Shown here piece after piece: positions 1,620 through 60,739 of a DNA stretch of 64,000 bases. This DNA is from Flavobacteriaceae bacterium. Its GTDB lineage: Bacteria; Bacteroidota; Bacteroidia; Flavobacteriales; Flavobacteriaceae. Every line of letters begins with the position of its first letter. The first letter of the stretch is position 1. Location: positions 8,789-72,788 of the forward strand of contig PKDY01000039.1 in assembly GCA_002862755.1 (NCBI GenBank), read 5' to 3'. Below the pieces are notes generated by a model. The model was not told the DNA's origin. It ran no database searches and was given only the letters and a program-made list of their open reading frames with translations. The position numbers and the translations under genes are program-made.

Positions 1620-2522
1620 TTATTCAACAGGAATATACAAATCGAGAATTGCTTTTTTTTCAGGATGCTTATTGAAATCATTATGATACACTTCAAACGG
1701 ATTGTGATCTGCTTTTTTATAGCCATTTTCATTCATCCATATAAATAAACCAGTCCAAGCTTTTTCTAAATCTTCAATTAACAATTCATAATGACCTACA
1801 ATATATTTTCCTTTTGGTAAGTGTCCTATATTAAGCTCTCCATTAACGGCAATAGTTTCTATCAAAGTAACCCCAATACTCATGCGTACTTTGTCTGGAG
1901 CAGTAATTTTAAAATTATCATGAAATACACGAATGATTTTGGAACGGTTGTTTTCTAAAATTTGATTAGGAGTACACCACTGAACTATTTTTTGAAAAGC
2001 TTTTTCTAATTCTTCCACACCTATATGGGTAACATAAACATAAGGTTGGGTAGCCAATTCTTTAATTTCAATTTTTGCATACATAGTCGTAAAATTTTTA
2101 AGATTTATTAGGTTACAAATGTAGGTTTCATAATTTTCCATTTGTTGACTATTCTTGCTATCTGTTTGACTTATCTTGCTAAATTTGTGTAGATGTGTTT
2201 TTCTAAAATTAGAAGGACTTTGATGGTAATAGTTTTTAAATGTTTTCGTAAAAACAGCATTGCTTGTAAAACCCAATTGATCAACAATGCTAGCAATCGT
2301 AAGTTCTTTTTTGTGTAATAATAAAGATGCAGCTTTTTCGATTTTTTTGCGAATGATATATTGGTTCAGGGTTTCATTGGTAATCATTTTAAAAATACGA
2401 TGAAAATGAAAAGGCGAATAGTAAGCGATTTGTGCTACTGTTTCTAATGACAATTCGTTATCCAAATTAGCATCAATAAATTCAAAAACCGCATTTATTC
2501 TTTTTTGATATTCTTCTGTCAT
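1620..2522 (-). CDS. AraC-family regulator with C-terminal GyrI-like effector domain (Rob-type)
   Basis: N-terminal LSLETVAQIAYYSPFHFHRIFK HTH; C-terminal GyrI-like region (EKAWTGLFIWMNENGY, FEVYHND, LYIPVE). Confidence 0.9.
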   Translation of the reverse strand: MTEEYQKRINAVFEFIDANLDNELSLETVAQIAYYSPFHFHRIFKMITNETLNQYIIRKKIEKAASLLLHKKELTIASIVDQLGFTSNAVFTKTFKNYYHQSPSNFRKTHLHKFSKISQTDSKNSQQMENYETYICNLINLKNFTTMYAKIEIKELATQPYVYVTHIGVEELEKAFQKIVQWCTPNQILENNRSKIIRVFHDNFKITAPDKVRMSIGVTLIETIAVNGELNIGHLPKGKYIVGHYELLIEDLEKAWTGLFIWMNENGYKKADHNPFEVYHNDFNKHPEKKAILDLYIPVE

Positions 2523-3316: not shown

Positions 3317-4428
3317 TATTTTTTCTTCTCTTTTTTAGATTCCTTTTGCGCTTCTTGAAAAGCATCTCTAAATTCGACATCATTATCCACTTGTCTTTTA
3401 AAAGCTTCAATCCAAGCATTTTGAAAAATATGAATAACAGTGGGCCAAACTCCTGCTTTTACATTTTTTAAATCTCCTTCAATAGGAACTTTAGTAGCTA
3501 AGGTATTGGTACGTTGATTTTTGAGGACAAATTTAAAGAAACCAACAAAACCTTCCCATACTTTTTCAAAAAATCCATCTTCTTTTCCAATTAATTTTGA
3601 ATCTTTTAAAAGAGGTTTGATATATCCTTTTAAATAACCATCAGCAATAGCCACTTCGCTATACAATTCAAAAGTACCTTTTTCAAAATCAATACCAGCA
3701 TAATGCTTTGACAAATCGTTCAAAGCTGTTGCTTGGGCAGATTGAAGTGAAAAAGTAAGATCCATATCAGGAATTTCTTTAATTAAATTGATATTCCCAT
3801 CCAATGTCATTTTTCCATTGCCAACAGATACTCCAGTGGCATGAAAAGGAGAGGGTAAAGTGCGAGATTTGGCTACCACATTTCTAAGATTATCCGCGTA
3901 CATTTCAATTTTTTCAATATGTAAATCGATATCTGGACTGGCTTGTATTTGTACAAAAGCAACTTTTCCATTATGAATTTCAAAATGGTTGATATCTATA
4001 GGAATAATTTCAGTTAATGCTTTGGTCCAATCTTCTACATCGGGTTCTTTACCTTTTGAATTTTGGTCTTCAAAGACATAAATAGCATCAGGATTGTATA
4101 GTATTACTTCACTTACAATTTTGCCTTTAAACAGCGATTTCCATTCAATAGAAATGTCGCTTTTTGGAAACTTTAAAAAAGGAATTTCAGTTTTAGCATT
4201 TAATTTATTTAAATACAACCCTTTAATAACATAAGCTCCTCTAACTAAAGCAATATCAACATCATCTACATAACCATAATAACCAGGAATTGTAGCCAAT
4301 GTTTTGTTGATTTGGTTTTTTACCAATGTGGGTAAATATATTCTGAAAATTAGAAGACCTAATAACAGTATAGCGATAAAAATATATCGCTTTCTTTTAT
4401 AAAATGCTATTTTTTTTGGGTCTTTCAT
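3316..4428 (-). CDS. DUF748 (AsmA-like) protein
   Basis: N-terminal TM helix, beta-rich body, GYIKPLLKD and ATKVPIEGDL motifs, NAWIEAF tail. Confidence 0.75.
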   Translation of the reverse strand: MKDPKKIAFYKRKRYIFIAILLLGLLIFRIYLPTLVKNQINKTLATIPGYYGYVDDVDIALVRGAYVIKGLYLNKLNAKTEIPFLKFPKSDISIEWKSLFKGKIVSEVILYNPDAIYVFEDQNSKGKEPDVEDWTKALTEIIPIDINHFEIHNGKVAFVQIQASPDIDLHIEKIEMYADNLRNVVAKSRTLPSPFHATGVSVGNGKMTLDGNINLIKEIPDMDLTFSLQSAQATALNDLSKHYAGIDFEKGTFELYSEVAIADGYLKGYIKPLLKDSKLIGKEDGFFEKVWEGFVGFFKFVLKNQRTNTLATKVPIEGDLKNVKAGVWPTVIHIFQNAWIEAFKRQVDNDVEFRDAFQEAQKESKKEKKK

Positions 4429-4432
4429 AGTA

Positions 4433-4493
4433 TAAAAGTACTTGTAAAATAGCCGGACAGTGTTATAGTTTTTTCTTAAAATGTTATATAATT
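4433..4493 (-). promoter_or_regulatory. Tandem-box promoter (regulon site 1) for the DUF748 operon
   Basis: -7-like 4433-4440 (sense TACTTTTA); boxes TTATAGTTTT 4463-4472 and TTATATAATT 4484-4493 (+ strand text); 21-bp period, 22-bp gap. Confidence 0.65.
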
Positions 4494-4502
4494 TAAAAAG
4501 AA

Positions 4503-5528
4503 TTACAGGTCGCTTTTCTTTTTTAGACTTATTTTATCAACCAAGCGCGCTACTGCTTTAGGAGGATCAAATCGATAACCTACATAAAATAGCAAATAGG
4601 TTTTTCCTTGACTTACTGTTTTTGATTGCTCTTCTTTGTATGCATTAGCAGAAAAATTCAGTTGGCTACCAAAAATAAAATGATCCGAACTATATCCTAA
4701 TTGTAAGCCGCCATCTAAATATTGAGTGTTATAAGTTGCTTTAGATATTGAGATTTCGTTTGGAGATGAATTGGTGGTTTCAGAAAAGCGAATGCCATAG
4801 GCTGGAGCCAAATAAGCAGAAATAAACCCTTTTTTTTGAATCACCAAAGTATAGTAATAGCCCAAAGCCAATCGAAGATTAAAAAAATCTTCCGCTATTT
4901 TGATGGTTTCAAGTGGTAAGGAAGTTCTGTTATAATCATAGTATAAAGTGGGTACAAAACTTCCAGCACTTTTTTGTTGCCATTCCGATTGAAAGAGAAC
5001 ATTTCGAAAAGAAAATTTTGGATTGAAAACATAACTCGTATTAGCACCAATAGTCAAATATTTTAAATCCGGAAATTGGATGTAAGGATCTTTATTTTCG
5101 GTCCAATTTTCAACATAATCTTGTGAATTTTCAACATAAAAACCTCTAACTTTGGAAAACTCAAAACCTTGTACCCATTTGCCTAAGAAAAATCGAAACT
5201 TATAATTGGTATACGAAGATTTACCTTTTAAATATTCATCATTGTTATCTGAAAAGAATTTAGGTGCAAAACCAACACTACCTCCAATAAATTTATAATC
5301 TAAAGAAATAAAAAGTTTAAAACTATTGTTGGATTGTAAGGTGAGTTGGCTATTATCGTCTGAATTGTTTAAGGAAAAAAAATCTTCTTGAGTATCGATA
5401 TTAATGCGTATCGAAACTTTATTTGGAAACGATTTGATATAAGTAGAATCAATTGCTTTTTTTTCTTGCGCAGTTACACGCCAAGAAGTACTACAAATGA
5501 AAAGCAATATGATTCCTTTATACCACAA
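4503..5528 (-). CDS. DUF4421-family outer-membrane beta-barrel protein
   Basis: Signal peptide; FSFRN...QSEWQQKSAGSFVP motif; aromatic beta-strands ending YVGYRF. Confidence 0.7.
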   Translation of the reverse strand: MWYKGIILLFICSTSWRVTAQEKKAIDSTYIKSFPNKVSIRINIDTQEDFFSLNNSDDNSQLTLQSNNSFKLFISLDYKFIGGSVGFAPKFFSDNNDEYLKGKSSYTNYKFRFFLGKWVQGFEFSKVRGFYVENSQDYVENWTENKDPYIQFPDLKYLTIGANTSYVFNPKFSFRNVLFQSEWQQKSAGSFVPTLYYDYNRTSLPLETIKIAEDFFNLRLALGYYYTLVIQKKGFISAYLAPAYGIRFSETTNSSPNEISISKATYNTQYLDGGLQLGYSSDHFIFGSQLNFSANAYKEEQSKTVSQGKTYLLFYVGYRFDPPKAVARLVDKISLKKKSDL

Positions 5529-5634
5529 AATCCTGTAAATTCTAAGTTATTCAAAGATATAAAATATTGAATTATCTAATTACAGGATATTTTAAAATAG
5601 AAAATTGCTTTAATTGACTTAAAAAGTAATGTTT

Positions 5635-6744
5635 TTATTTATTTCTTTTTCCCCACCAAATAAGAATACCTGTTATGGGCAAACTGGCAATGAGTAAGCT
5701 AATTAAGAAAGCAAAAATTTTTCCAGGTAAACCCAAAATTGCACCTGTATGAATATCATAATTCATTCGCATAATTTTGTCTGAAGCAGTTGCGTGATCA
5801 AGCTTTCCGTAAATGTGTTCCACTTCTTTTTCTTCTAAAGTGTAATAATCAAAATAGCGATAATCGGTTTGCCAATAGGTGCCTTTTCCTAAATTCGCAT
5901 TGGCCGCAATTATTCCATCTGCACTTTCAGGTGGATGTACTTCAATAGCTGATGCATTGGGATATTCCTCTTGCATTTTAAACCATACTTTGTCTAAAGG
6001 GTTTTCTACGATTAAAGGAGAATTGGACTTAGTAAAAACAGGTTCTTCATACACTAATGATTTTTCACCACCAATTACCGTATAATAGGAATAGGCAAAC
6101 CAAGGGAAGCCCCAAACTAAACCCGTAACAGCAAAGATGAGTGCAATGGATAAAACATAAAAACCAGTAATATTGTGTACATCATAATTTTTACGTTTCC
6201 ATTTCGTCGTATTTTTCCATTGAAACCAAAAACGTTGTTTGGCTGCTTTTTTATTTTTGGGAAACCAAAGAATGAAACCTGATATAATGAGTAGTACAAA
6301 AATTAATGTGGCAGAAGCAATAACAGTTTGCCCTATTTTTTCAGGTAGCCAAAGATAAAAATGACCGTCTAATATGAATCTGAAAAAACCCGAAAGTTCG
6401 TTTACGGTTTGAAGTACTTCTCCTGTGTATGGGTTAATGTAACAAATATCATAATATAAAGGTTCTGCATTATAAAAGATAACTTCTGCGGCTTGTTCTT
6501 TTCCTTTATACTGAATCGCATGAATGTGTTTGTGAGGTAGTTGTTGTTGACCAATACTTTTTAATTGGCTAGGTAGTAAAAAATCTTGTTCTTGTTTTTC
6601 AACCTTTTTATAAGTTTCTGTTAGATTTAATATTTCTTCTTGAAAAGCATAGAGACAACCTGTTATTGCAACAATAAAAACAATGATACCGGAAGCCAAA
6701 CCTAACCAAAGATGTATTTTTCGAATACTTTTTTTAAAATTCAT
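5635..6744 (-). CDS. PepSY-associated TM helix protein (iron-uptake associated)
   Basis: RKIHLWLGL, DGHFYLWLP, YDVHNITGFY, YDIHTGAILG motifs; lies downstream of a TonB receptor. Confidence 0.9.
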   Translation of the reverse strand: MNFKKSIRKIHLWLGLASGIIVFIVAITGCLYAFQEEILNLTETYKKVEKQEQDFLLPSQLKSIGQQQLPHKHIHAIQYKGKEQAAEVIFYNAEPLYYDICYINPYTGEVLQTVNELSGFFRFILDGHFYLWLPEKIGQTVIASATLIFVLLIISGFILWFPKNKKAAKQRFWFQWKNTTKWKRKNYDVHNITGFYVLSIALIFAVTGLVWGFPWFAYSYYTVIGGEKSLVYEEPVFTKSNSPLIVENPLDKVWFKMQEEYPNASAIEVHPPESADGIIAANANLGKGTYWQTDYRYFDYYTLEEKEVEHIYGKLDHATASDKIMRMNYDIHTGAILGLPGKIFAFLISLLIASLPITGILIWWGKRNK

Positions 6745-6761
6745 GATTCTTTTATTAAAAA

Positions 6762-18281: not shown

Positions 18282-18306
18282 AAAACGCTCTTAAGGAGAG
18301 CGTTTT
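18282..18306 (-). terminator. Terminator after yihY
   Basis: Stem AAAACGCTCT/AGAGCGTTTT with a long upstream A-run (U-tract on minus). Confidence 0.75.
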
Positions 18307-18338: not shown

Positions 18339-19277
18339 TTATTTGTCTGTTGGGTTTTCGTGTAAGATTTGGACACTACTTTTTTTTTCAGTGGTAGTTA
18401 TAAATTCTGCGAAGGAGGAAGGTTGAATTGGAGCAGCGTATTCTACAGCATAGGACTTTGCCAATTGCGCACCAAAATATAAAATCATGGATGAGTAGTA
18501 CACCCAAACCATAACGATTACAAAAGAACCTGCAGAACCATATACAGAGTTAATATTGGAATTAGCGATATAGAAAGAGATTAAAAATTTACCAAAAATA
18601 AATAATATAGCAGTGGTAAATGAAGCAAACTTAACCTGTCTCCACTTGATTTCTGCATCGGGTAAAATGGTAAAAATGGCACCAAATAAGAAGGAAATGA
18701 CTAAAAATGAAATTAAAGAATTAATCACATAAATGACATAATAAAGTACTTCGGGAAAATAAGAAGTCAATTCGTTACTAATAGCATCTAAAATAGCTGA
18801 AATACCTAATGATACAAGTAGAATAAAACCAATGCTACCGATTACTCCAAAGGATAATAAGCGAGCCTTAATAAATATCCAAAATCCAGAAGCTTTCTTT
18901 TTGGGTCGAATATCCCAAATAGTATTTATAGAATCTTGAATTTCTGCAAAAACAGAAGTAGCTCCAATAATTAACATGACTATACCTACTATTCCTGCTA
19001 AACTAGTACTATTAGAAATACTTAGGTTTTTGATCATTTCTTGAACCTGGATGGCACTTTCTTCGCCTACAAAATTTTTGAGTTGGTTATAAATACTACC
19101 TTCAATAGCTTCTCTTCCCCAAAAAATATCACATAAATAGAGTAGTACAAGCAATAAGGGACCAATTGAAAAAACAGTGGTATAGGCTAAGGAAGAACTT
19201 AGCTTTAAGATTTTTTTTTCTAAAAAACCTGTAAAGGTGTTTTTCAATACTTTCCAAAATCGCTTAAAATCTATCAT
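18339..19277 (-). CDS. YihY/virulence factor BrkB family membrane protein
   Basis: LSSSLAYTTVFSIGPLL, GATSVFAEIQDSINTIW, YGSAGS...VWVYYSSMILYFGA. Confidence 0.92.
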   Translation of the reverse strand: MIDFKRFWKVLKNTFTGFLEKKILKLSSSLAYTTVFSIGPLLLVLLYLCDIFWGREAIEGSIYNQLKNFVGEESAIQVQEMIKNLSISNSTSLAGIVGIVMLIIGATSVFAEIQDSINTIWDIRPKKKASGFWIFIKARLLSFGVIGSIGFILLVSLGISAILDAISNELTSYFPEVLYYVIYVINSLISFLVISFLFGAIFTILPDAEIKWRQVKFASFTTAILFIFGKFLISFYIANSNINSVYGSAGSFVIVMVWVYYSSMILYFGAQLAKSYAVEYAAPIQPSSFAEFITTTEKKSSVQILHENPTDK

Positions 19278-19279
19278 TA

Positions 19280-21493
19280 TTAAATATATTTAGGAATATA
19301 AATGGTGAAAGTTGCTCCTTTTCCAAGTACGCCTTTTGCAAAGATGTAGCCATTATGATTTTCAACAATTTTTTTACAAATTGCTAAACCTACACCCGTA
19401 CCTTGATATTCTGTCTTACCATGAAGTCTATTGAATAATAAAAAGATTTTTTCGGCATTTTCTTGTTCAAACCCGATACCATTATCAGTAAACTTAATTT
19501 TATGATATACTTCATTAGTAGGTTCGTTTAATATAGGTTCGTTTTTAGCTTTTATCTTTTTATATTTGATTACTATTTCAGGAACAACTTCTTCTTTAGA
19601 ATATTTCAAAGAATTACTAATTAAATTGGTAAAAAGTTGTTGCATTTGAAATTCTACTCCTTCAATAACATCAAAAGAATCATATTTGATGATTGCTTTT
19701 TTGTCTTCAATGTTTTGAGAAAGTTCTAGAATACTATTTGCTAATACTTCATTAAGATCTACTTGGGTGAACACATTATCACCTCTGTTAGTCCTTGAAT
19801 ATTGTAACAAATCATTAATTAAAATACGCATTCTGCTTGAAGCTTTTTCAATACGAATGAGATAATCTTTTCCAAAATCGGTTAGATTTTCTTTTTCTTT
19901 ATCGTTAATTCTAGAAATGAAAGTTTGAATTTTTCTAAGTGGTTCTTGTAAGTCATGACTGGCAACATGATTAAATTCACTTAGTTCTTTAATATTTTGT
20001 TCCAATTCATAATTTCGTTCTTCCAGTAATTCATTTTTGTGGTAATCCTCTGTTACATCTTGAGTGGTTCCAATCATACTTTCTAAACCACTTAAGTCGG
20101 TAAAGGATTTGGCTACCGTTTTGAAATGTCTTATTTCTTTATCTTTACGCACCACACGATAATTAAGAGCAGGAATCTCACCAGTTGTATTGGCATGTTC
20201 AAATGCTTTTTGGACTAACTCTCTATCATCTTCATAAATATGATCCATTAGATTTTCTAAGGTAGGTTGGAAAGATTTGGGTTCAAATCCCATTAATCGG
20301 AATTTATTTTCAGAATAGATGAATTCATTCGTTTCAAAATTAAAAATCCAGCTACCATAGTTACCTAAAATTTCAGCTTGACGACTCGATTCATCAAAAA
20401 TGATAAGTTCGTTATTTAATTTCTGTAAACTTTGAATGTTTTCTTCTAATAGTCTGTTTTTATTGATTTCATCCGTGATGTCATGCGTAACTCCTAAAAC
20501 CGTTTTATGTTTTAATTTTTCTACGAATAGTTTTCCTGTTGCTCTAAAATAGCGTATTTCGCCATCGGGTCGAATAATTCGAAAAGTGGTAGGAGGTAAA
20601 TTTTCCTCCCTTACGGTTTGGTCCATGATTCCTAGTACAATTTCTTTGTCTTCCGGATGTACAAAAGTTAGAAAATTATCATTTGTAGAAGGAAAGGAGA
20701 ACGGTTCATAACCTAGAATGCGATAAAAGTTTTCAGAATATTTAGTCACATGCGTAACTAAATCCCATTCCCAAGTACCAAAATTGGATAGAATTTCAGC
20801 TTGAGAGTTTAAAAAGAAAGCTTTATTTAATGTATTATTAGCATCTTTTAATTTTTCTAAGTCTTTATCAGTTTTATAGTACGCATAAACAATTAAAAGT
20901 ATGGTAACCAATAAAATACCAAGAGTCAATAGAGGTGTTAAACTGATTTGTTCGTTATAAATTGAATTTCTTTTCTTTAAAAAAGTATCTTCAATTTCAG
21001 TCATTTGGTTGATTTTATTACGAATGGCAACCAGTAATCGACTACTTTCATTAAAATCTTCTTTAAACTTTTTAGTCTTTTGGATTCTTTTGTTAGTGTC
21101 TGGATCAGAATATTCCCCGTTATAATCTAAACGCTTTTTAATAATTTCATATAATTCGTTTAGATTTTGTTGTTGTTTTTTATTGTCTTTGGTTAATCTT
21201 TTTAATTTGGCAAACGATTCATTAATATTGCTATTAGCTGTATAGTAGGGGTTTAGATACATACTTTCATTTGTAATCAAAAAACCTCTCATACTATTTT
21301 CCGAATCTTTGATATAAGAAAATAAATGTTCAAGTTCTAGATTCACTTCATAAGTATGCACAACCAGTTTTGATGATTTGGAGAGATTTTCGATATGTTT
21401 ATACGTTACGGCACCCACAAACAGTACCACAAATAAACTGATTGTAAAGATAATTTTATGAACTTTTGAAGTTTTAAATTTATTTTCTCTCAT
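19280..21493 (-). CDS. Membrane sensor histidine kinase: CHASE3 + two PAS + HisKA/HATPase
   Basis: TM-VVHTYEV...DSENSMRGFL (CHASE3)-TM; two PAS-PAC repeats (GTWEWD/GSWIFN, YRVVRKD); H-box ASHDLQEPLRKI; NLISNSLKY, DNGIGF, GTGVGLAICKKIVENH. Confidence 0.93.
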   Translation of the reverse strand: MRENKFKTSKVHKIIFTISLFVVLFVGAVTYKHIENLSKSSKLVVHTYEVNLELEHLFSYIKDSENSMRGFLITNESMYLNPYYTANSNINESFAKLKRLTKDNKKQQQNLNELYEIIKKRLDYNGEYSDPDTNKRIQKTKKFKEDFNESSRLLVAIRNKINQMTEIEDTFLKKRNSIYNEQISLTPLLTLGILLVTILLIVYAYYKTDKDLEKLKDANNTLNKAFFLNSQAEILSNFGTWEWDLVTHVTKYSENFYRILGYEPFSFPSTNDNFLTFVHPEDKEIVLGIMDQTVREENLPPTTFRIIRPDGEIRYFRATGKLFVEKLKHKTVLGVTHDITDEINKNRLLEENIQSLQKLNNELIIFDESSRQAEILGNYGSWIFNFETNEFIYSENKFRLMGFEPKSFQPTLENLMDHIYEDDRELVQKAFEHANTTGEIPALNYRVVRKDKEIRHFKTVAKSFTDLSGLESMIGTTQDVTEDYHKNELLEERNYELEQNIKELSEFNHVASHDLQEPLRKIQTFISRINDKEKENLTDFGKDYLIRIEKASSRMRILINDLLQYSRTNRGDNVFTQVDLNEVLANSILELSQNIEDKKAIIKYDSFDVIEGVEFQMQQLFTNLISNSLKYSKEEVVPEIVIKYKKIKAKNEPILNEPTNEVYHKIKFTDNGIGFEQENAEKIFLLFNRLHGKTEYQGTGVGLAICKKIVENHNGYIFAKGVLGKGATFTIYIPKYI

Positions 21494-21505
21494 ACAGCTT
21501 CTTCT

Positions 21506-21952
21506 TTACAGACGTAATAAAAAATTATCTTTATTTAAACCACTAGTATGATATTGCCAATTGATAGTTACTACTTCTGATAAAACTTTCTTTAGAGTAT
21601 TAAAATCACTTGGTTTTTTAATATAAATATTGGCACCCAAAACAAAAGTATTCTCAACATCTTGATCTGACGATGAGGTTGAATAGATGGCAATAGCGAT
21701 ATTATCAAATTTTTGATTTTTTTTAATTTCTTTTAAACATTCGATTCCATTTAGAATAGGCATATTTAAATCTAGAAAGATAATATTTGGTAAAACAGAT
21801 TCTGGGTGATGTAGAAAATCTAATAATTCTTTACCATTTTTAAAAGTATTGACGACTGTATTTATTTTTAATTCATCAAAAGCATCTGTAAAAAATAAAC
21901 GATCATCTTCGTCATCATCGGCTAAAGTAATTAAGATATAATCTTTCTGCAT
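21506..21952 (-). CDS. Single-domain response regulator (Rcp1-like receiver)
   Basis: ADDDEDD acidic pocket, FLDLNMP phospho-Asp, YSTS, IKKP. Confidence 0.95.
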   Translation of the reverse strand: MQKDYILITLADDDEDDRLFFTDAFDELKINTVVNTFKNGKELLDFLHHPESVLPNIIFLDLNMPILNGIECLKEIKKNQKFDNIAIAIYSTSSSDQDVENTFVLGANIYIKKPSDFNTLKKVLSEVVTINWQYHTSGLNKDNFLLRL

Positions 21953-21964
21953 GGTTTTAGTTTA

Positions 21965-22528
21965 TTAATTTATGTTTTTTGTAGCAATTTCTCTTCTTTT
22001 GGTAATAATCCTTTGAAAAGCAGAAGGAGTAATACCTGTAGTGTTTTTAAATTGAGTACTTAAATGCGCAACACTTGAATAATTCAATTTAAATGCAATT
22101 TCGGTAAGACTTAAATTTTCATTTACAATCAAATGTTTCGTCAATTCAATTTTTTGTAGGATGATAAAGTTTTCAATAGAAGTATAGGTAACTTCAGAAA
22201 AAATATTGGATAAATAGCCATAACTATGGTCTAATTTCTCTGCCAAATAAACGGAACTCTTTACATTAGGGGCCTCTTCATTAAATACCATTTCAATAAT
22301 GGCATCCTTGATTTTTTGAACCAAGATATTTTTCTGATTTTCAATTATTTCAAAACCATATTCTTCTAATAAGGCTGTAATTTGATGGTACGTATCTGTG
22401 GGTATGTTTTCTAAAAACAAAACTTCAGAAGCATTTACAATTTCAAATCGAATATTGAAACTTTTCAATTTTTCTTCTAAAATTTTTTTTGCTAAAACAT
22501 TGATGTCAAGCTTTAAAAATAATTTCAC
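21965..22528 (-). CDS. Short AraC-family HTH regulator (Bacteroidota type)
   Basis: GTG start; LAEKL.HSYGYLSNIFS, LSLTEIAFKLNYSSVAHLSTQFK.TTGITPS; short N-terminal domain; no cysteine in the protein. Confidence 0.88.
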   Translation of the reverse strand: MKLFLKLDINVLAKKILEEKLKSFNIRFEIVNASEVLFLENIPTDTYHQITALLEEYGFEIIENQKNILVQKIKDAIIEMVFNEEAPNVKSSVYLAEKLDHSYGYLSNIFSEVTYTSIENFIILQKIELTKHLIVNENLSLTEIAFKLNYSSVAHLSTQFKNTTGITPSAFQRIITKRREIATKNIN

Positions 22529-22611
22529 GGTACTGTTTTTAAATTTTAGTAAAAGTAAGAAAAATGTTTAATAAATAAATAGTTTTTATTAAACAAAAAA
22601 GTAGTCTTTTA

Positions 22612-23352
22612 TCATTTGTTATCTGCTGCTTCTTGTTTCTTTTCTGCTTCTTTTTGTGCTTCCTCTTGGGCTTTTCTTTTTTCTCTTTCTTTTTTTCTAA
22701 AATAGCCTCTTAATAGGAAATTATGCTTTGCCGCTTCCATATTTTCATTCAATCCTTTAGAACTTTTTCTTAAATTCTCCATCGTTTTTTCTAAATCTTG
22801 AGCCATACTTTCATCATTCATTAGTTTACCTAACGTTCCTTCACCATCATTAATATCAGTTAATAGAATGGCTAGTTCATCTGTAATTACTTCTGCGTTT
22901 TCAGCGGTTACTTTTACCGAAGCCATGATATCGTCCATTTCAACGGGTTCGTATGAACCAATAGTGTCACCATCTTGAATTTCTTTCGAATGAGATGAAC
23001 CTTGAGAAATAGTTAATAATTTATCCCCAATTACGCCTTCAGAACCTATAGAAGCTTTGCTATTTTTTTTGATAAACTTTTTAACATCTGATTTAATAGA
23101 TAAATCTACTTGTACGGTGCTATCGTTAATAATTTCAACATTATCAACGGTTCCCACATCTATTCCTGAGAAACGAACAGAGCTACCTACTTGCAAACCA
23201 CTCGCGTTTCTGAACTTGGTTTTTATCTTTATTTCTGAGCTAAATAAATTTTGTTGGCTACCAATTAAAAAGATAATTACAATTAAAAATGTTAGGCCTA
23301 AACTTACAAATAAGCCTAATTTTACTTTATATGATTTATTTTGTGATTCCAT
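22612..23352 (-). CDS. mlaD: MlaD/MCE-family protein
   Basis: TM + ASGLQVGSSVRFSGIDVGTV, IGSEGVIGDK; helical tail GEGTLGKL. Confidence 0.9.
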   Translation of the reverse strand: MESQNKSYKVKLGLFVSLGLTFLIVIIFLIGSQQNLFSSEIKIKTKFRNASGLQVGSSVRFSGIDVGTVDNVEIINDSTVQVDLSIKSDVKKFIKKNSKASIGSEGVIGDKLLTISQGSSHSKEIQDGDTIGSYEPVEMDDIMASVKVTAENAEVITDELAILLTDINDGEGTLGKLMNDESMAQDLEKTMENLRKSSKGLNENMEAAKHNFLLRGYFRKKEREKRKAQEEAQKEAEKKQEAADNK

Positions 23353-23367
23353 GTTTGTTGTTTTTTA

Positions 23368-24099
23368 TTAGTTGAAAAATGATTGTATGTAACTATCCTC
23401 ATCGTTTTCAAATTCGGATAGTGTTCCTTCTTTATATACTACGCCATCTTTTAGCATTATAATTCGATCTGCTACTGTTTGTACACATTTTATATCATGT
23501 GTAATAATAATTGAGGAAGTTTTAAATTTATTTTTGGTTTCATTAATGAGTTGACTAATTTCATCGGATGTAATCGGATCAAGACCCGTCGTAGGTTCGT
23601 CGTAAAGCAAAATTTTTGGATTCACGATTAACGTTCGTGCTAAACCAATTCTTTTTTTCATACCTCCAGATAATTCGGAAGGCATTTTATCAATGGCTTC
23701 TGGTAAACTAACGTCCTCTAAAACTTTTTCAATTTTTTGCGTAATTTCTTCTTTTGAGAATTTTTTATCCAATCGTGTTAATGGAAACGTTAGATTTTCT
23801 CTTACCGTCATAGAGTCATATAATGCAGCACCTTGGAATAAGAAACCGATCTTTTTTCTAACTTCAATTAAATCTTCATCCGTGCTATTTGCTATTTCAT
23901 AATCTTCTACTTTAATACTTCCTGAATCGAGTTGCAGTAAATTAACGATACATTTGATTAAAACCGATTTTCCAGTTCCTGATTTTCCCAAAATCACTAA
24001 GTTTTCATTCTCAAAAAGTTGTAAAGTAACTCCTTTCAGAATATCTTGTGTTCCAAAACTTTTGGTTACATCTTTTATGTCGATTAATGCCTTTTTCAT
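23368..24099 (-). CDS. mlaF: MlaF-type ABC ATPase
   Basis: Walker A GKSGTGKS, FQGAALYDSMTVRENL, LSGGMKKRIGLAR, LLYDEPTTGLDP, ITHD. Confidence 0.92.
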   Translation of the reverse strand: MKKALIDIKDVTKSFGTQDILKGVTLQLFENENLVILGKSGTGKSVLIKCIVNLLQLDSGSIKVEDYEIANSTDEDLIEVRKKIGFLFQGAALYDSMTVRENLTFPLTRLDKKFSKEEITQKIEKVLEDVSLPEAIDKMPSELSGGMKKRIGLARTLIVNPKILLYDEPTTGLDPITSDEISQLINETKNKFKTSSIIITHDIKCVQTVADRIIMLKDGVVYKEGTLSEFENDEDSYIQSFFN

Positions 24100-24905
24100 A
24101 ATAAATCAGTTATTTGAACGGCAATTAAGTCGACGATAATTAATAATAAGGAAGCGGTTACTACTGCTGAATTGGCAGCTACACCCACACTTTCTGTTCC
24201 TCTTCCAGCGTTGAAACCTTTGTAACATCCTACTAAACCAATAACGGCACCAAAAAAGAATGACTTAATAAGTGCAGGAAGTAAATCTATAAATTCAACA
24301 CTATCAAACGCTTGATGCATAAACAAAGTAAAACTAACATCGTCTTTGATATTCACACCTAGCCAACTTCCAAATATTCCAATAACGTCTGCATATAATG
24401 TTAAAATAGGTATCATTACCGTTGCGGCTAATACTCTCGGAACAATTAAAAAATTAATTGGATTCGTATTGGAAACTTCCATGGCATCGATTTGTTCCGT
24501 TACTCGCATAGAGCCTAGTTCTGCACCCATACTAGAACCAATTTTTCCTGCACAAATAAGCGCGGTAATAACAGGTCCCATTTCTCTAATAATGGATATA
24601 GCAACCATACCTGGAAGCATAGCAACAGCTCCAAATTCTACTAAAGGTGGTCGTGATTGAATGGTTAAAACCAATCCAATGATTATACCTGTAATTGAAA
24701 TTAATCCAACAGATTTATTTCCAATTTGATAACATTGTTTTAGGAATTCGCTTTTTTCAAATGAGGAATGAAAAATATTTTTCATCACACTTTTTAAATA
24801 ATACATTACATTGGCAACGTCTATAAAAAAGTCGATAAATTTTTGCTTGATATCATTCATAAAACTATTGGTTATGAATGAATTATTTGGTTTTAAATAA
24901 GACAT
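24096..24905 (-). CDS. mlaE: MlaE-type ABC permease
   Basis: IREMGPVITALICAGKIGSSMGAELGSMRVTEQIDAMEV, GCYKGF. Confidence 0.93.
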   Translation of the reverse strand: MSYLKPNNSFITNSFMNDIKQKFIDFFIDVANVMYYLKSVMKNIFHSSFEKSEFLKQCYQIGNKSVGLISITGIIIGLVLTIQSRPPLVEFGAVAMLPGMVAISIIREMGPVITALICAGKIGSSMGAELGSMRVTEQIDAMEVSNTNPINFLIVPRVLAATVMIPILTLYADVIGIFGSWLGVNIKDDVSFTLFMHQAFDSVEFIDLLPALIKSFFFGAVIGLVGCYKGFNAGRGTESVGVAANSAVVTASLLLIIVDLIAVQITDLL

Positions 24906-24927: not shown

Positions 24928-24988
24928 CAAAGCTAGATATAAAACCAATTGGTATGCTTACATAATTTTTTTCAAATTTTATATAATT
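24928..24988 (-). promoter_or_regulatory. Tandem-box promoter (regulon site 5) for mlaEFD and possibly the downstream AraC/RR/HK/yihY genes
   Basis: -7 24928-24935 (sense TAGCTTTG); TTACATAATT 24958-24967; TTATATAATT 24979-24988. Confidence 0.78.
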
Positions 24989-45381: not shown

Positions 45382-47178
45382 TTATAATTGCGGATCGTTT
45401 TCATAAATTTTACTTACTTCTTTTAAATCTCCACTAGGAGATTTCTTATTCTGAAAAGAAGCTACCCAATTTGCTACTACAATTTCACTGGTTGCACTAC
45501 AAGCTTGTAACCCATAAGAATAAGGACGTAAACCAGAACTATGTGTAAAACTAATATCTTGTATCGCTTCAATTGTATCTCCATTTGCATCTACAAGGCA
45601 ATAACTACTAGTAATAGTAATTCCTGGAAGTTCATAGAATGGAGTATTCTCTTTTATTGTAATTTTTTTTTCTTCATCAGAGGTTAATTCCATAGTATCT
45701 GGGTTCTTTTTAAAAGGAATTTGAGGTGGAGTAATATGTTCTTCTTTGACTAAAGATGGAAATGGATAGTCATCAACACTAATAGCACTTTGGCCACTGC
45801 AGTTGATAAACATTTGGTATAAATGAATGGTTTGTTTATCGTTATGTGTCACTTCAATTGTTGTAAAATCCTTGCTTTCCAAAATGTTTACATAACCAGG
45901 AACAATTTCTATTTTTTTAGCATCATAAAGCGCTAATAGTATTTTTGCAGAAGGAATAGGCATCGCTGCAATTACATTCATTAAAAATGGCATAATTTCT
46001 TTTCTGAAAAAAATATGATCTTCAGCAGGCAATAATTCAGCATGAAAATTAAGTGCATACATTAAATCATCAATGACTTCTTTCCAATGAATAGGTTTAT
46101 TTTTAGTAATGGAAACAGAGGCTTGTTTCATTTCTTCTCGCATGCCTTCAAAAGCATTTTCATATTCATGCTTATCTGCCATATCAGTAACGAAATCCTT
46201 AAAGGTATAATCAGTATTCGTTATTTTTTTTGATAATTGCATCAGCTTGTCTTTTTGAAAGGCTTTGGATAATGCTGGAACGCAAAATTTTGTAAAATAA
46301 GTGGAAAGGGTTAAAAATCCACCTTTGTCTAATGCATTAAAAAGTGCTTTTCTATCAAAATGTCTGTATATTTCTCGAATGGGCTCTTCTTGTTCATATT
46401 GTAGGTGTGGTAACCAACCGTGAGCAGCGTGCATGACAATTTTGAAATTATCGGTTCCTTTATAAGGTTGGTAAATATAGTTGCCCTTTGAGTCAGTTAC
46501 AAATTTGCCATGCCTTCTAGATAAAGAAGAAACTACATCAAAAGCACTAAGAGAAGCCCCAAGTGTTCCAATGGTAAAATTGTGGAAAGTTCCTTGTTGA
46601 GGTAAAATTTTATGTATAGGCCAAGGTGAAGCATAAAAACCATTTTTTTCTTGATCATCGTCTTTCCATTGATGCCCAGTTGCAATAATTACTTTGTCAA
46701 ATTCATATACTTTAATAGAGGTATGTAAACTGACCATTTTAGTTGTGTTGTCATACGTAATATCAATTATTTCAGTATTTGGGTATTCAATACATTGAAT
46801 TCCGAAATCTTTTATATTTTGGATAATAGATTGGTATTGAGATTGTAAATATTGGCCTAATGCCAAACGATTATATACTTCACTTTTACTTATATTATCT
46901 TTTTCTATTTCCAATTTTTTTAAAAAAGTAACGGATTGTTTTTTCAACCAATCTTCAAATGTGATTTCTAATTGCGGTAATTCTTCAGAGGAGATATTAG
47001 ACAAATTGTATAAATCTGTAGTAATAGGATTATAAGGCATTCCCATACCTAAAATCGTGTTCTTTTCAAAAATTGAAATAGAATAAATTTCTTTTTTTAA
47101 AATAGACATCTTATCTAAAAGATGTTTTAATAAATAAATTGAAGTTGCTCCACTTCCTATGATAGCAATGTTTTTCAT
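45382..47178 (-). CDS. FAD/NAD(P)-binding oxidoreductase (NAD_binding_9-like)
   Basis: IAIIGSGAT Rossmann motif, GMGMPY, IIATGH, GASLSAFD, INCSGQ. Confidence 0.8.
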   Translation of the reverse strand: MKNIAIIGSGATSIYLLKHLLDKMSILKKEIYSISIFEKNTILGMGMPYNPITTDLYNLSNISSEELPQLEITFEDWLKKQSVTFLKKLEIEKDNISKSEVYNRLALGQYLQSQYQSIIQNIKDFGIQCIEYPNTEIIDITYDNTTKMVSLHTSIKVYEFDKVIIATGHQWKDDDQEKNGFYASPWPIHKILPQQGTFHNFTIGTLGASLSAFDVVSSLSRRHGKFVTDSKGNYIYQPYKGTDNFKIVMHAAHGWLPHLQYEQEEPIREIYRHFDRKALFNALDKGGFLTLSTYFTKFCVPALSKAFQKDKLMQLSKKITNTDYTFKDFVTDMADKHEYENAFEGMREEMKQASVSITKNKPIHWKEVIDDLMYALNFHAELLPAEDHIFFRKEIMPFLMNVIAAMPIPSAKILLALYDAKKIEIVPGYVNILESKDFTTIEVTHNDKQTIHLYQMFINCSGQSAISVDDYPFPSLVKEEHITPPQIPFKKNPDTMELTSDEEKKITIKENTPFYELPGITITSSYCLVDANGDTIEAIQDISFTHSSGLRPYSYGLQACSATSEIVVANWVASFQNKKSPSGDLKEVSKIYENDPQL

Positions 47179-47230: not shown

Positions 47231-47291
47231 CTAAAGTATTTTATTATAAGTAAGTAGGTGTTACAGTATTTCATTTATGAATTACATAACT
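47231..47291 (-). promoter_or_regulatory. Tandem-box promoter (regulon site 9), weaker match
   Basis: -7-like 47231-47238 (sense TACTTTAG); TTACAGTATT 47261-47270; TTACATAACT 47282-47291. Confidence 0.55.
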
Positions 47292-47319
47292 ACCATTCAT
47301 TTTGGATAACAATACAGTT

Positions 47320-47379
47320 AGTTATATAAAAAAAGACGGAAAAGATGTAATATTTAAATCTTTTTAATAATTAATTTTA
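47320..47379 (+). promoter_or_regulatory. Tandem-box promoter (regulon site 10) for the ligase/helicase operon
   Basis: AGTTATATAA 47320-47329; AAAGATGTAA 47341-47350; -7-like TAATTTTA 47372-47379 (21-bp gap). Confidence 0.62.
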
Positions 47380-60428: not shown

Positions 60429-60690
60429 GAGCTAAAACCTATTAATTTCAGCCTAAAAGCTCTTAATAATAAGCTCAAAGCTATTAGTAATAATCAAAAA
60501 GGTTCAAATTATAACCTCAAAGCTATTATTTATAACCAAAAAGGTCCTAATTATAACCTTAAAGCTATTAATTATAACCTTAAAGCTATTAATTATAAGC
60601 AAAAAGCTATTAGTAATAACCAAAAAGGTTCTAATTATAACCTTAAAGCTTATATTTATAAAATAAAAGGTATTAATTAGTAACAAAAAG
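60429..60690. repeat. Imperfect 21-bp tandem repeat, about 12 units
   Basis: Consensus approximately ATAACCTTAAAGCTATTAATT, variant ATAACCAAAAAGGTTCTAATT; lies between two terminators. Confidence 0.8.
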
Positions 60691-60739
60691 GTATTTGCGA
60701 TAAGCTATTTGGTTTAAAATGAATATTTTCCTAAATAAA

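Follow-up and report, generated by a model that had tools for sequence, protein, structure and literature searches.

The window, by which we mean the whole stretch of 64,000 nucleotides that was analysed, carries on its minus strand three consecutive genes for an AraC-family regulator (187 aa), a receiver-only protein (148 aa) and a CHASE3-PAS-PAS histidine kinase (737 aa). These and the neighbouring features, all on the minus strand, are as follows.

24928-24988, minus strand: tandem-box promoter (site 5), with box 1 at 24988-24979, box 2 at 24967-24958 and a -7 element at 24935-24928
24905-24096, minus strand: mlaE (Pfam MlaE; ATG at 24905)
24099-23368, minus strand: mlaF (Pfam ABC_tran)
23352-22612, minus strand: mlaD (Pfam MlaD)
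22529-22611, minus strand: mlaD-araC spacer of 83 bp, free of terminator-like hairpins in a terminator scan
22557-22550, minus strand: -7-like sequence TACTTTTA within that spacer, 21 nt ahead of the araC GTG
21965-22528, minus strand: araC, short AraC-family regulator with a GTG start (Pfam HTH_18 and HTH_AraC)
21506-21952, minus strand: single-domain receiver of the Rcp1/phytochrome response regulator type (Pfam Response_reg only)
19280-21493, minus strand: membrane sensor histidine kinase (Pfam; TM, periplasmic CHASE3, TM, PAS_3, PAS_3, HisKA, HATPase_c)
18339-19277, minus strand: brkB, YihY/BrkB-family inner-membrane protein (Pfam Virul_fac_BrkB, 156 bits)
18282-18306, minus strand: terminator-like hairpin directly after brkB, a 10-bp stem followed by a T run (terminator scan)
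18245-18215 and 18131-18101, minus strand: two tandem-box promoters directly past the end of the unit, heading a cluster of DUF4142, OMP-barrel, YtxH and holin-like genes

The open reading frames and their coordinates agree with the tight, co-oriented trio described in an earlier sequence-only reading: gaps of 12 bp separate araC from the receiver gene and the receiver gene from the kinase gene, while 2 bp lie between the kinase gene and brkB. That reading also placed the trio 83 bp past mlaD with no strong terminator between them, and this holds, as the scan from mlaE to brkB returned zero terminator-like hairpins and the hairpin at 18306-18282 is the sole such site on the minus strand from mlaE to the next promoters. 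The brkB gene, whose product also matches NCBIfam yihY_not_rbn above cut-off, follows the kinase gene in many relatives and is here the putative final gene of the transcription unit. The mla genes (22612-24905) stand between the box promoter and araC, an arrangement repeated in eight relatives with a box upstream of mlaE, and TACTTTTA in the spacer could drive basal araC expression.

The kinase has a CHASE3 domain at residues 41-176 (84.9 bits, cut-off 28) between two hydrophobic segments (about 11-31 and 183-206), two PAS_3 stretches, and HisKA (38.2 bits) and HATPase_c (71.7 bits) domains that each score above cut-off in Pfam. Its H-box, VASHDLQEPLRKI (also given as ASHDLQEPLRKI), contains His513. 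Orthologous kinases tested from Flavobacterium undicola and Kordia keep CHASE3 and have one PAS domain. In the receiver, Pfam finds Response_reg alone (67.4 bits, residues 8-124), in line with the earlier statement that it has no output domain. The acidic pocket (DDD, residues 12-14), the phospho-acceptor Asp61 in FLDLNMP, Ser91/Thr92 and Lys113-Pro are all present and are also conserved in a paralogue, and the protein ends in a conserved C-terminal tail, INWQYHTSGLNKDNFLLRL. Its sequence matches in the PDB (5te9, 5ic5, 6xvu, 5brj, 4zyl, 1k66, 1k68 and 1i3c; E values of 1e-17 to 1e-10) include Rcp1, RcpA, RcpB and the BRRs of Deinococcus, Agrobacterium and Ramlibacter, and the best solved relatives of the kinase core are the 8f71 kinase first and then bacteriophytochromes, which supports the likeness to Cph1/Rcp1 pairs proposed from the sequence. 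The partner encoded beside this receiver is the CHASE3-PAS kinase; a phytochrome partner occurs only in a paralogous trio on contig C33 of the same genome. Adjacency in more than 100 loci, together with family membership, suggests phosphotransfer from kinase to receiver.

The AraC protein has at its C-terminus the double helix-turn-helix domain, about 100 aa long, that marks the AraC/XylS family (HTH_18, 56.1 bits against a cut-off of 33.6, residues 95-173; HTH_AraC, 42 bits against 26.6). Among solved structures, the closest to the HTH part come from the DNA-binding domains of response regulators of the YesN type (REC-AraC), and NCBIfam similarity to SoxS and others is weak and far under the cut-offs. 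Ahead of the MarA-like DNA-binding domain there is an N-terminal domain of only about 60 aa, and the whole protein contains no cysteine, so the earlier description of a short, Cys-free N-terminal domain with no large ligand-binding module was correct. Modelling suggests that this domain probably adopts a beta-alpha-beta-beta-alpha-beta fold (AlphaFold2 pLDDT 73), with the metal-binding domain of CopA (3fry) as the best Foldseek match at a non-significant E of 0.45. Pfam HMA matches the N-termini of paralogues below threshold (E = 0.0023 and 0.14) and does not match the AraC studied here, for which hhalign against one HMA sequence gave no signal. The paralogues carry an M-x-C-x-x-C motif (NMVCNRC, NMACESC) at the position where this AraC reads LDINVLA. 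JGI labels some of the paralogues as 'AraC-like.../copper chaperone CopZ'.

Judged by gene order across genera, the trio is a widely conserved flavobacterial signalling unit. Among 80 related loci kept from 499 species hits (Flavobacterium, Kordia, Mariniflexile and Dokdonia among them), the order araC, receiver, kinase is retained in 80 of 80 with enough contig; it is also kept in most of 26 more distant loci. By genus, it is retained in 16 of 20 in which the AraC is only 44-55% identical, and it occurs in other Bacteroidia families as well. By this comparison the trio behaves as one conserved unit, and the receiver gene lies directly 3' of araC in every locus with enough contig. Across the 80 loci the receiver is 69-100% identical and the AraC 66-99%, with the HTH half almost invariant. 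Conservation within the AraC is lowest in the N-terminal domain, which falls to 26-35% identity in distant orthologues; this is odd for a docking surface. Full-text literature searches found no paper on the trio or the motif, and no curated family model was found for the trio, which as far as we know is unstudied.

At site 5, box 1 (AATTATATAA) is spaced 21 bp from box 2 (AATTATGTAA), and 22 nt past box 2 comes the -7 element (TAGCTTTG), which confirms the box-bearing site 5 of the earlier reading. With 33.5 bits it is the top-scoring site of the genome under a weight matrix that we built from 11 sites of the window and applied with search thresholds of our own choosing. Although the matrix derives from this window, its recovery of sites in other genera is independent. 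The genome itself (3.7 Mb) holds about 23 matrix sites, 13 of them within the window, and a scan of the 80 loci (1.47 Mb) gave 164 sites above 16 bits, 160 of which are on the strand of the trio. The consensus across species is ATGGaAATTcTATAAcA ... AAAaATc.TATAACAc. In other genera a box promoter most often sits directly after the kinase gene. Putative targets in the window comprise Dps, MscS, YtxH, DUF4142, an OMP barrel, Mla, a PAP2-TamB-Omp85 group and a ligase-Lhr operon, a collection that suggests a programme against envelope, osmotic or stationary-phase stress.

The geometry of these promoters is highly regular. In 80 of 99 sites from different genera an nAnnTTTG element follows box 2 at a distance of 21-22 nt, box 2 ends precisely at the would-be Bacteroidota -33 element, and position -33 reads CAC rather than TTG, which gives the promoters an activator-dependent look. 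Given this placement, the AraC would act as a class II-type activator. In Escherichia coli AraC at araI1-I2, and in the class II activators MelR, RhaS and XylS, two protomers occupy direct repeats with a spacing of about 21 bp, the promoter-proximal one abutting the -35/-33 region; the same direct-repeat geometry is found here. These activators differ in possessing a sugar-binding or cupin dimerisation domain, which the present AraC lacks, in that its promoters are of the Bacteroidota -33/-7 type, and in that its input would be a phospho-receiver. An ECF-sigma promoter was considered as an explanation of the boxes and rejected, as both boxes carry one directly repeated sequence that is followed, at a fixed distance, by a sigma-A -7 element. 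A site ending exactly at -33 would also suit a repressor that occludes this region and is displaced by the receiver in its phosphorylated (or unphosphorylated) form, in which case feedback on its own operon would be negative. Flavobacterial promoters reportedly rely mainly on the -7 element, as studies of the F. johnsoniae ompA promoter are said to show, and this too would fit occlusion. We nevertheless regard repression as very improbable, since a distance from box to -7 that is constant to within 1 nt in those 80 of 99 sites is typical of activators that contact RNA polymerase and the CAC at -33 likewise points to activation.

We surveyed the strict promoter pattern over 300 genera, with the backwards pattern as a control. 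Of the 12 genomes whose AraC orthologue reaches 61% identity or more, 10 contain the pattern at least four times; of the 289 others, 8 do so (Fisher p = 2e-12). Three of these eight exceptions hold a diverged or sister-clade AraC system, and the remaining five equal the number given by the backwards control. In genera with a diverged AraC orthologue, matches are few and located beside the AraC gene. The expectation that the motif would be absent where the trio is absent is thus borne out, with the box promoter frequent almost only alongside a close AraC orthologue. The survey supports the AraC as the one DNA-binding protein whose occurrence across genera follows that of the tandem boxes, and the AraC is the best candidate for switching on the stress and envelope genes that share the tandem box.

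A different regulator might bind the boxes, with the trio merely a member of the regulon, and the likeliest such protein is the orphan short AraC that this genome encodes on contig C29 (5729-6289). In G236, G261 and G307 a C29-type protein, 59-63% identical to this paralogue, is the sole short AraC next to tandem boxes, the boxes there (GTGAATTATGTAAC ...) are nearly identical, and the second recognition helix, YSSVAHLSxQFK, is common to both clades. Orthologues of the C29 protein are, however, present in most genera, many of which have 0-1 pattern matches (G255, G133, G297, G181 and G137 among them), and there is no box near the C29 gene itself. We therefore consider control by another regulator quite unlikely, although cross-talk with the sister clade is possible because the genome contains an orphan member and near-identical boxes occur elsewhere. 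A Rob-like AraC-GyrI protein (1620-2522) was rejected as the box binder: its orthologues are missing from box-rich genera that have a close AraC orthologue (among genomes with at least four pattern matches, only G204 and G261 have one) and present in many box-poor ones. LytTR-type regulators likewise use direct repeats spaced by about 21 bp; none occurs among the annotated open reading frames of the window, and neither a LytTR protein nor any other regulator is common to the loci.

Site 5 is the putative autoregulatory promoter of mlaEFD-araC-RR-HK-brkB, where RR and HK denote the receiver and kinase genes. A box on the same strand lies within 4 kb upstream of araC in 54 of the 80 loci, with 0-3 co-oriented genes between, and a box promoter reading into araC fits the autoregulation that had been proposed. 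Twenty-five of the 80 loci have no such upstream box, at least five of them with less than 1.7 kb of upstream sequence. Feedback is not universal, as about a quarter of the loci with adequate upstream sequence have no box before araC.

Partnership between the receiver and the AraC is supported indirectly by a conserved gene pair, a duplicated module and one lineage of fusions. The pair remains adjacent where no kinase gene adjoins it, for instance in Chryseobacterium gleum and in G400. The paralogous trio on contig C33 comprises a short AraC, a lone response regulator and a bacteriophytochrome, and within this clade the AraC-receiver pair is kept in all three other species examined. Natural fusions of 340-343 aa, found on three independent contigs of a single metagenomic lineage, consist of an N-terminal domain, AraC, a linker and REC, so that the domain order of HTH then REC is the order of the separate genes. 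They are 49-50% identical over the whole AraC-receiver concatenate, are encoded 10 bp past a PAS kinase, and form three clusters that are mutually 84-90% identical. A search of 1.84 billion representatives brought up no other AraC-REC fusion within its best 150, and the two-stretch matches were REC-REC, AraC-AraC and canonical REC-AraC proteins. Folded as a single chain with AlphaFold2, the natural fusion gave a pTM of 0.67, notwithstanding a disordered 16-aa linker, a value that is only suggestive of partnership, and its REC domain superposes on 6xvu, 1i3c and 1k68 with TM scores of 0.83-0.89. The fusion contigs contain no box of at least 10 bits, a search that is uninformative because the fusion HTH is only about 45-50% identical to that of the present AraC.

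These observations also bear on the alternative that the AraC binds its boxes in the manner of MarA and SoxS, through abundance set by its autoregulated promoter, while the kinase-receiver pair acts as a phosphate sink, in kinase feedback or on another target. The protein is indeed little beyond a MarA-like DNA-binding domain and some 60 residues, its N-terminal domain is poorly conserved, and two of the four short AraCs in the genome have no adjacent receiver, which indicates that the fold needs none. To our knowledge, moreover, the outputs of Rcp1-type receivers are generally unknown, a question open since Rcp1 was solved. Against this, the AraC-receiver pair persists without a kinase gene beside it, recurs as a duplicated module alongside another kind of sensor, and has fused in one lineage with gene order retained. 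We judge control by abundance alone to be unlikely. MarA, SoxS and Rob resemble the present AraC in being essentially a two-HTH domain of about 120 aa, but they bind one asymmetric 20-bp box as monomers under abundance control, whereas here there are tandem boxes, an N-terminal domain and a kinase-receiver pair.

Our preferred reading, to which we assign a probability of roughly 0.55, is that the trio constitutes a non-covalent 'split' response-regulator system. The kinase, in which the catalytic motifs are all present, would sense an extracytoplasmic and/or cytoplasmic cue and autophosphorylate at His513, and adjacency and family suggest that the phosphoryl group would pass to Asp61 of the lone receiver. 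The phospho-receiver, probably dimeric like its solved relatives, would then bind the short AraC and promote or stabilise occupancy by two protomers of the two 10-bp boxes (approximately AATTnTRTAA) at their 21-bp spacing. Bound in this way, the AraC may activate sigma-A promoters that have no -33 TTG of their own. As a box promoter heads mlaEFD-araC-RR-HK-brkB, the system would, with read-through, raise its own level.

The proposed system has parallels among known ones. The YesN type, UirS-UirR and the Bacteroides hybrid systems (HTCS) also unite, in one pathway, a histidine kinase and a receiver with a two-HTH output of the AraC type; UirR is described as a response regulator of the AraC family that serves a photosensory kinase (PMC7332365). 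In YesN, UirR and HTCS the receiver is N-terminal and shares one polypeptide with the HTH (HTH_18), whereas here the two are separate proteins encoded 12 bp apart with araC first; even the rare natural fusion carries its receiver at the C-terminus, and the AraC here has a small N-terminal domain of its own. With Cph1-Rcp1 and the bacteriophytochrome-BRR pairs the trio shares a kinase core with an SHDLQEPLR H-box and a single-domain receiver with a C-terminal extension, but its sensor is CHASE3-PAS instead of a bilin photosensor and a dedicated transcription factor is co-encoded. PhyR-NepR-EcfG of Alphaproteobacteria, in which a receiver phosphorylated by kinases alters expression through protein contact instead of a DNA-binding domain of its own and governs a broad, autoregulated stress regulon, is alike in outline only. 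The trio does not belong to that family, whose sigma/anti-sigma partner switch is unrelated to an AraC activator.

It is possible, though we put it at somewhat less than even odds, that the split arrangement is general: Rcp1-type receivers of Bacteroidia, those of bacteriophytochromes included, would dock on a dedicated small AraC with an HMA-derived N-terminus to form non-covalent response regulators served by CHASE3-PAS, phytochrome or hybrid-kinase sensors, and in Flavobacteriaceae the CHASE3 version found here would act as master activator for a general stress and envelope regulon. A co-encoded AraC partner, occasionally fused, offers a concrete and testable hypothesis for the output of phytochrome-type single-domain receivers. 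Bacteroidota lack RpoS, SigB and EcfG, and we know of no general stress regulator for the phylum; a conserved regulator that has a distinct cis-element and Dps, MscS, YtxH, Mla, TamB and DNA-repair targets would be a first candidate for a flavobacterial general stress controller. The sharply defined promoter, with two boxes at a 21-bp period and 22 nt to the -7 element, permits prediction of the regulon across hundreds of genomes and could serve as an inducible-promoter part in Bacteroidota genetics.

Our analysis places the AraC-family gene, the lone receiver gene and the CHASE3-PAS-PAS kinase gene in one tight run of a window with a G+C content of about 30%, and the features concerned are as follows.

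Upstream, minus strand: mlaE, mlaF and mlaD, in this order the first genes before araC, then an 83-bp spacer
22528-21965, minus strand: AraC-family protein, 187 aa, GTG start (Pfam)
21952-21506, minus strand: receiver-only protein, 148 aa (Pfam)
21493-19280, minus strand: kinase, 737 aa (Pfam)
19277-18339, minus strand: YihY/BrkB membrane protein (Pfam)
18306-18282, minus strand: terminator-like hairpin directly 3' of brkB, the only one on the strand of the unit from mlaE as far as the promoters that follow

The intergenic gaps are 12 bp between araC and the receiver gene, 12 bp between the receiver and kinase genes, and 2 bp between the kinase gene and brkB. These coordinates agree with the sequence-only reading, which had described co-oriented genes with 12-bp gaps beginning 83 bp after mlaD, and Pfam verified each of the domains that it had named; no NCBIfam model matched the AraC, the receiver or the kinase at cut-off. 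The kinase carries His513 within ASHDLQEPLRKI and its CHASE3 domain between two hydrophobic segments, the receiver has the complete D-D-D/D61/S-T/K set, and the AraC contains zero cysteines, in agreement with the earlier claim of a Cys-free N-terminal domain. This AraC is 99% identical to that of Flavobacterium profundi TP390, and the two genomes are nearly identical. Relatives of it are encoded in 499 species of the genome collection, and across the 80 related loci kept for comparison the AraC is 66-99% identical, with a nearly invariant HTH half, and the receiver 69-100% identical. The order araC, receiver, kinase holds in all of the 80 loci with enough sequence; mlaEFD lies 5' of araC in the closest relatives only, the trio being the constant part. 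The shorter kinases of other species, in those tested, are CHASE3-PAS-HisKA-HATPase proteins with one PAS fewer than the kinase of the window. Even where the AraC is merely 44-55% identical, 16 of 20 genera have the receiver directly 3' of araC with the kinase adjoining, and the arrangement is also kept in representatives of three other Bacteroidia families; in Chryseobacterium and one further sampled genus (G400) just the AraC-receiver pair is adjacent. Comparison across genomes thus gives strong support to the trio as one conserved unit.

The window contains about 12 sites where the motif AATTATRTAA recurs with a 21-bp period. When the genome was scanned with a weight matrix derived from 11 of these sites, the nine top matches all fell within the window and a dozen further ones on other contigs; the top-scoring site of the genome (33.5 bits) is site 5 (24988-24928), which heads mlaE. 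A Bacteroidota -7 element follows the second box: nAnnTTTG starts 21-22 nt 3' of it in 80 of 99 sites of other species and in 9 of 12 window sites. The usual spacer between the -33 and -7 elements in Flavobacterium promoters is 19 nt, so that a -33 element would start at the base right after the second box, where the consensus is CAC and not TTG. The sites have the geometry of activator-dependent, class II-type promoters. In the classical AraC I1-I2 arrangement, direct repeats are spaced by 21 bp and the proximal site abuts the -35/-33 region; the tandem boxes share both the spacing and the position of the proximal site, which speaks for an AraC as their binder. Two such promoters stand back to back at 47261-47350, one predicted to drive a FAD/NAD-binding gene (45382-47178, minus strand) and the other a plus-strand operon encoding metallo-beta-lactamase-fold, ligase, Lhr and phosphoesterase proteins. 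At 60432-60695, between two hairpins with T runs, lie 12.6 tandem copies of the 21-nt unit CTAAAAGCTATTAATTATAAC, which has the period of the boxes and contains a box-like TTATAAC core; the array gave no score with the box matrix, and we pose as a question whether it is a decoy array or a coincidence.

The distribution of these boxes follows that of the trio. In 1.47 Mb of related loci the matrix found 164 sites above 16 bits, 160 of them on the strand of the trio, at a density about 40 times that of the window's own genome outside the window. They typically lie about 125 nt 5' of araC or 5' of one to three co-oriented upstream genes, and a further usual position is directly 3' of the kinase gene. 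We also surveyed 300 genera of the family, at one genome per genus, with a strict promoter pattern (AWTNNTRTAA-N16-TRTAA-N24-28-TTTG), which has 13 real matches in the own genome against 0.2 in shuffles. Of the 12 genomes whose orthologue reaches 61% identity or more, 10 have the pattern at least four times, compared with 8 of 289 others (Fisher p = 2e-12); among those eight are one genome with a 51% orthologue, two with a sister-clade system and five remaining, the same number in which a backwards control pattern reaches four. As these counts across the 300 genera indicate, the motif is not retained in genomes that lack the trio; its retention there is what the sequence-only reading had named as a refutation. 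No other DNA-binding gene is common to the related loci. The window itself encodes a Rob-like AraC that also has a GyrI-like effector domain (1620-2522, minus strand), the last domain-annotated gene of a DUF748-hydrolase operon under a box at 4493; as a box binder it is rejected, since those box-rich genera in which the trio's AraC has a close orthologue encode no orthologue of it. Another candidate comes from a sister clade of short AraCs, named after an own-genome paralogue on contig C29, to which most of the ~40%-identical relatives in other genera belong (M-V-S-x-R-C N-terminus). In three sampled genera (G236, G261 and G307) the C29-type AraC adjoins a kinase with receiver domains, either carried or next in line, and is flanked by near-identical tandem boxes, GTGAATTATGTAAC; in G236 the kinase is a hybrid and a lone receiver is present as well. 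Two loci illustrate this system.

L100, 7446-11934, and L136, 3386-5881: C29-type AraC and a kinase with receiver domains fused to it or next to it, the variant box GTGAATTATGTAAC lying 5'

The L136 kinase has a CHASE3 domain and L100 a lone receiver, and the second recognition helix is common to both AraC clades. Because the own-genome C29 copy is an orphan without boxes nearby, and many genera that lack boxes have C29-type genes, we consider it a much weaker candidate than the trio's AraC, although cross-talk may occur; the trio's AraC we predict, with considerable confidence, to be the protein that binds the tandem boxes.

Site 5 is the only box promoter 5' of araC in the window, and since no hairpin lies between them, read-through from it into the trio is plausible; the single terminator-like hairpin, 3' of brkB, is in keeping with the earlier claim that no strong terminator separates mlaD from araC. 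The mlaD-araC spacer holds a -7-like element, TACTTTTA (22557-22550, minus strand, 21 nt 5' of the araC GTG), that may provide a basal trio promoter independent of the box promoter. Elsewhere, a same-strand box site lies within 4 kb 5' of araC, with zero to three co-oriented genes between, in 54 of the 80 loci; the intervening genes include mlaEFD and, in Kordia, an AI-2E transporter gene (Pfam), and perhaps Dps- or DUF4142-sized ORFs. No such site was found in 25 loci, at least five of which are short of upstream sequence. The proposed autoactivation therefore stands in part: a box promoter reading toward araC in most loci lends moderate support to an autoregulation that is likely and widespread, though not universal. 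The sign of the feedback is set by whether the AraC activates.

The AraC-receiver pair is the invariant core of the system, being kept even without an adjacent kinase. The own genome encodes three additional short AraCs, one of them in a paralogous trio.

Contig C33 (L081), 3359-6760: short AraC of 193 aa (NMACESC N-terminus), receiver of 150 aa, bacteriophytochrome of 752 aa

This receiver is 42% identical to that of the window, and the bacteriophytochrome has the domains PAS_2-GAF-PHY-HisKA-HATPase. Orthologues of the C33 AraC have a lone receiver next to them in all three other species examined, and one relative (L131) has the phytochrome and an adjacent heme oxygenase gene as well; the AraC-receiver module appears to have duplicated as a unit. 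Natural fusions of the two proteins also occur.

L104 (6001-7032), L105 and L106, metagenome contigs: fusion genes, separated by 10 bp from a preceding gene for a multi-PAS kinase of 1012 aa

In the fusion proteins (P0124, P0125 and P0126; 340-343 aa) the N-terminal domain is followed by the AraC HTH, then by some 20 aa of linker and by a receiver that ends, like that of the window, in an INWQYH..LNKENFLL tail; they are 49-50% identical over the full length to the concatenated AraC and receiver. P0125 is present in three independent assemblies, 10 bp 3' of a PAS kinase gene. None of the three contigs contains a tandem box, and the known fusions form a single lineage, no second one appearing in the best 150 of 1.84 billion representatives. 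An AlphaFold2 model of the fusion (pLDDT 80, pTM 0.67, linker disordered) hints at a defined domain arrangement, and the solved structures nearest to the AraC HTH are output domains of REC-AraC response regulators. Counting against control of the AraC by the receiver, conservation within the AraC is lowest in the N-terminal domain, and two of the own-genome short-AraC paralogues have no adjacent receiver; the indirect evidence for direct control is suggestive, and we put it at about even odds. Flavobacterium wongokense has a tandem pair of phytochrome-clade short AraC genes (L130, 4331-5573), and a 329-aa metagenomic protein (P0389) with two HTH_18 stretches is an AraC-AraC fusion; each observation is compatible with short AraC factors that act in pairs. 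The trio would work like AraC-type response regulators such as YesN, UirR and HTCS, but lacks their defining feature, one polypeptide chain that starts with the receiver. The suggested likeness to Cph1-Rcp1 pairs is borne out for the kinase core and the receiver, whereas the sensor differs and a dedicated transcription factor is added. The individual parts (HisKA kinase, receiver, AraC HTH) are ordinary; the trio is conserved in hundreds of species with a clear cis-element, and full-text literature searches yielded no paper dealing with the trio or with the box motif. Taken as a whole, the earlier interpretation is supported in part, with strong comparative support for the unit and for the AraC going with the boxes and moderate support for autoregulation, and we give the complete proposed mechanism a probability of roughly 0.55.

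Residues 1-88 of the AraC, which include the N-terminal domain, were modelled by AlphaFold2 with moderate confidence (pLDDT 73) as a helix (9-22), two strands (28-32 and 35-38), a helix (44-55) and a long helix (65-82), the last of which we take to align with helix 1 in DNA-binding domains of the MarA type. Paralogues have M-x-C-x-x-C at residues 8-14 (NMVCNRC, and NMACESC in the phytochrome trio), where the AraC of the window reads LDINVLA. Pfam HMA is the top match on the paralogue N-termini, below threshold; a fold search gave the metal-binding domain of CopA as best match, not significantly, and hhalign of the domain against HMA gave no signal. We read it as a candidate domain of HMA origin in which the metal site has been lost. 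A third short AraC, on contig C24 (L083, 4735-7893), has an intact M-V-C-N-R-C N-terminus and is likely a metal-sensing member of the same family; its gene lies directly 5' of that for a heavy-metal P-type ATPase (HMA, HMBD, E1-E2 ATPase).
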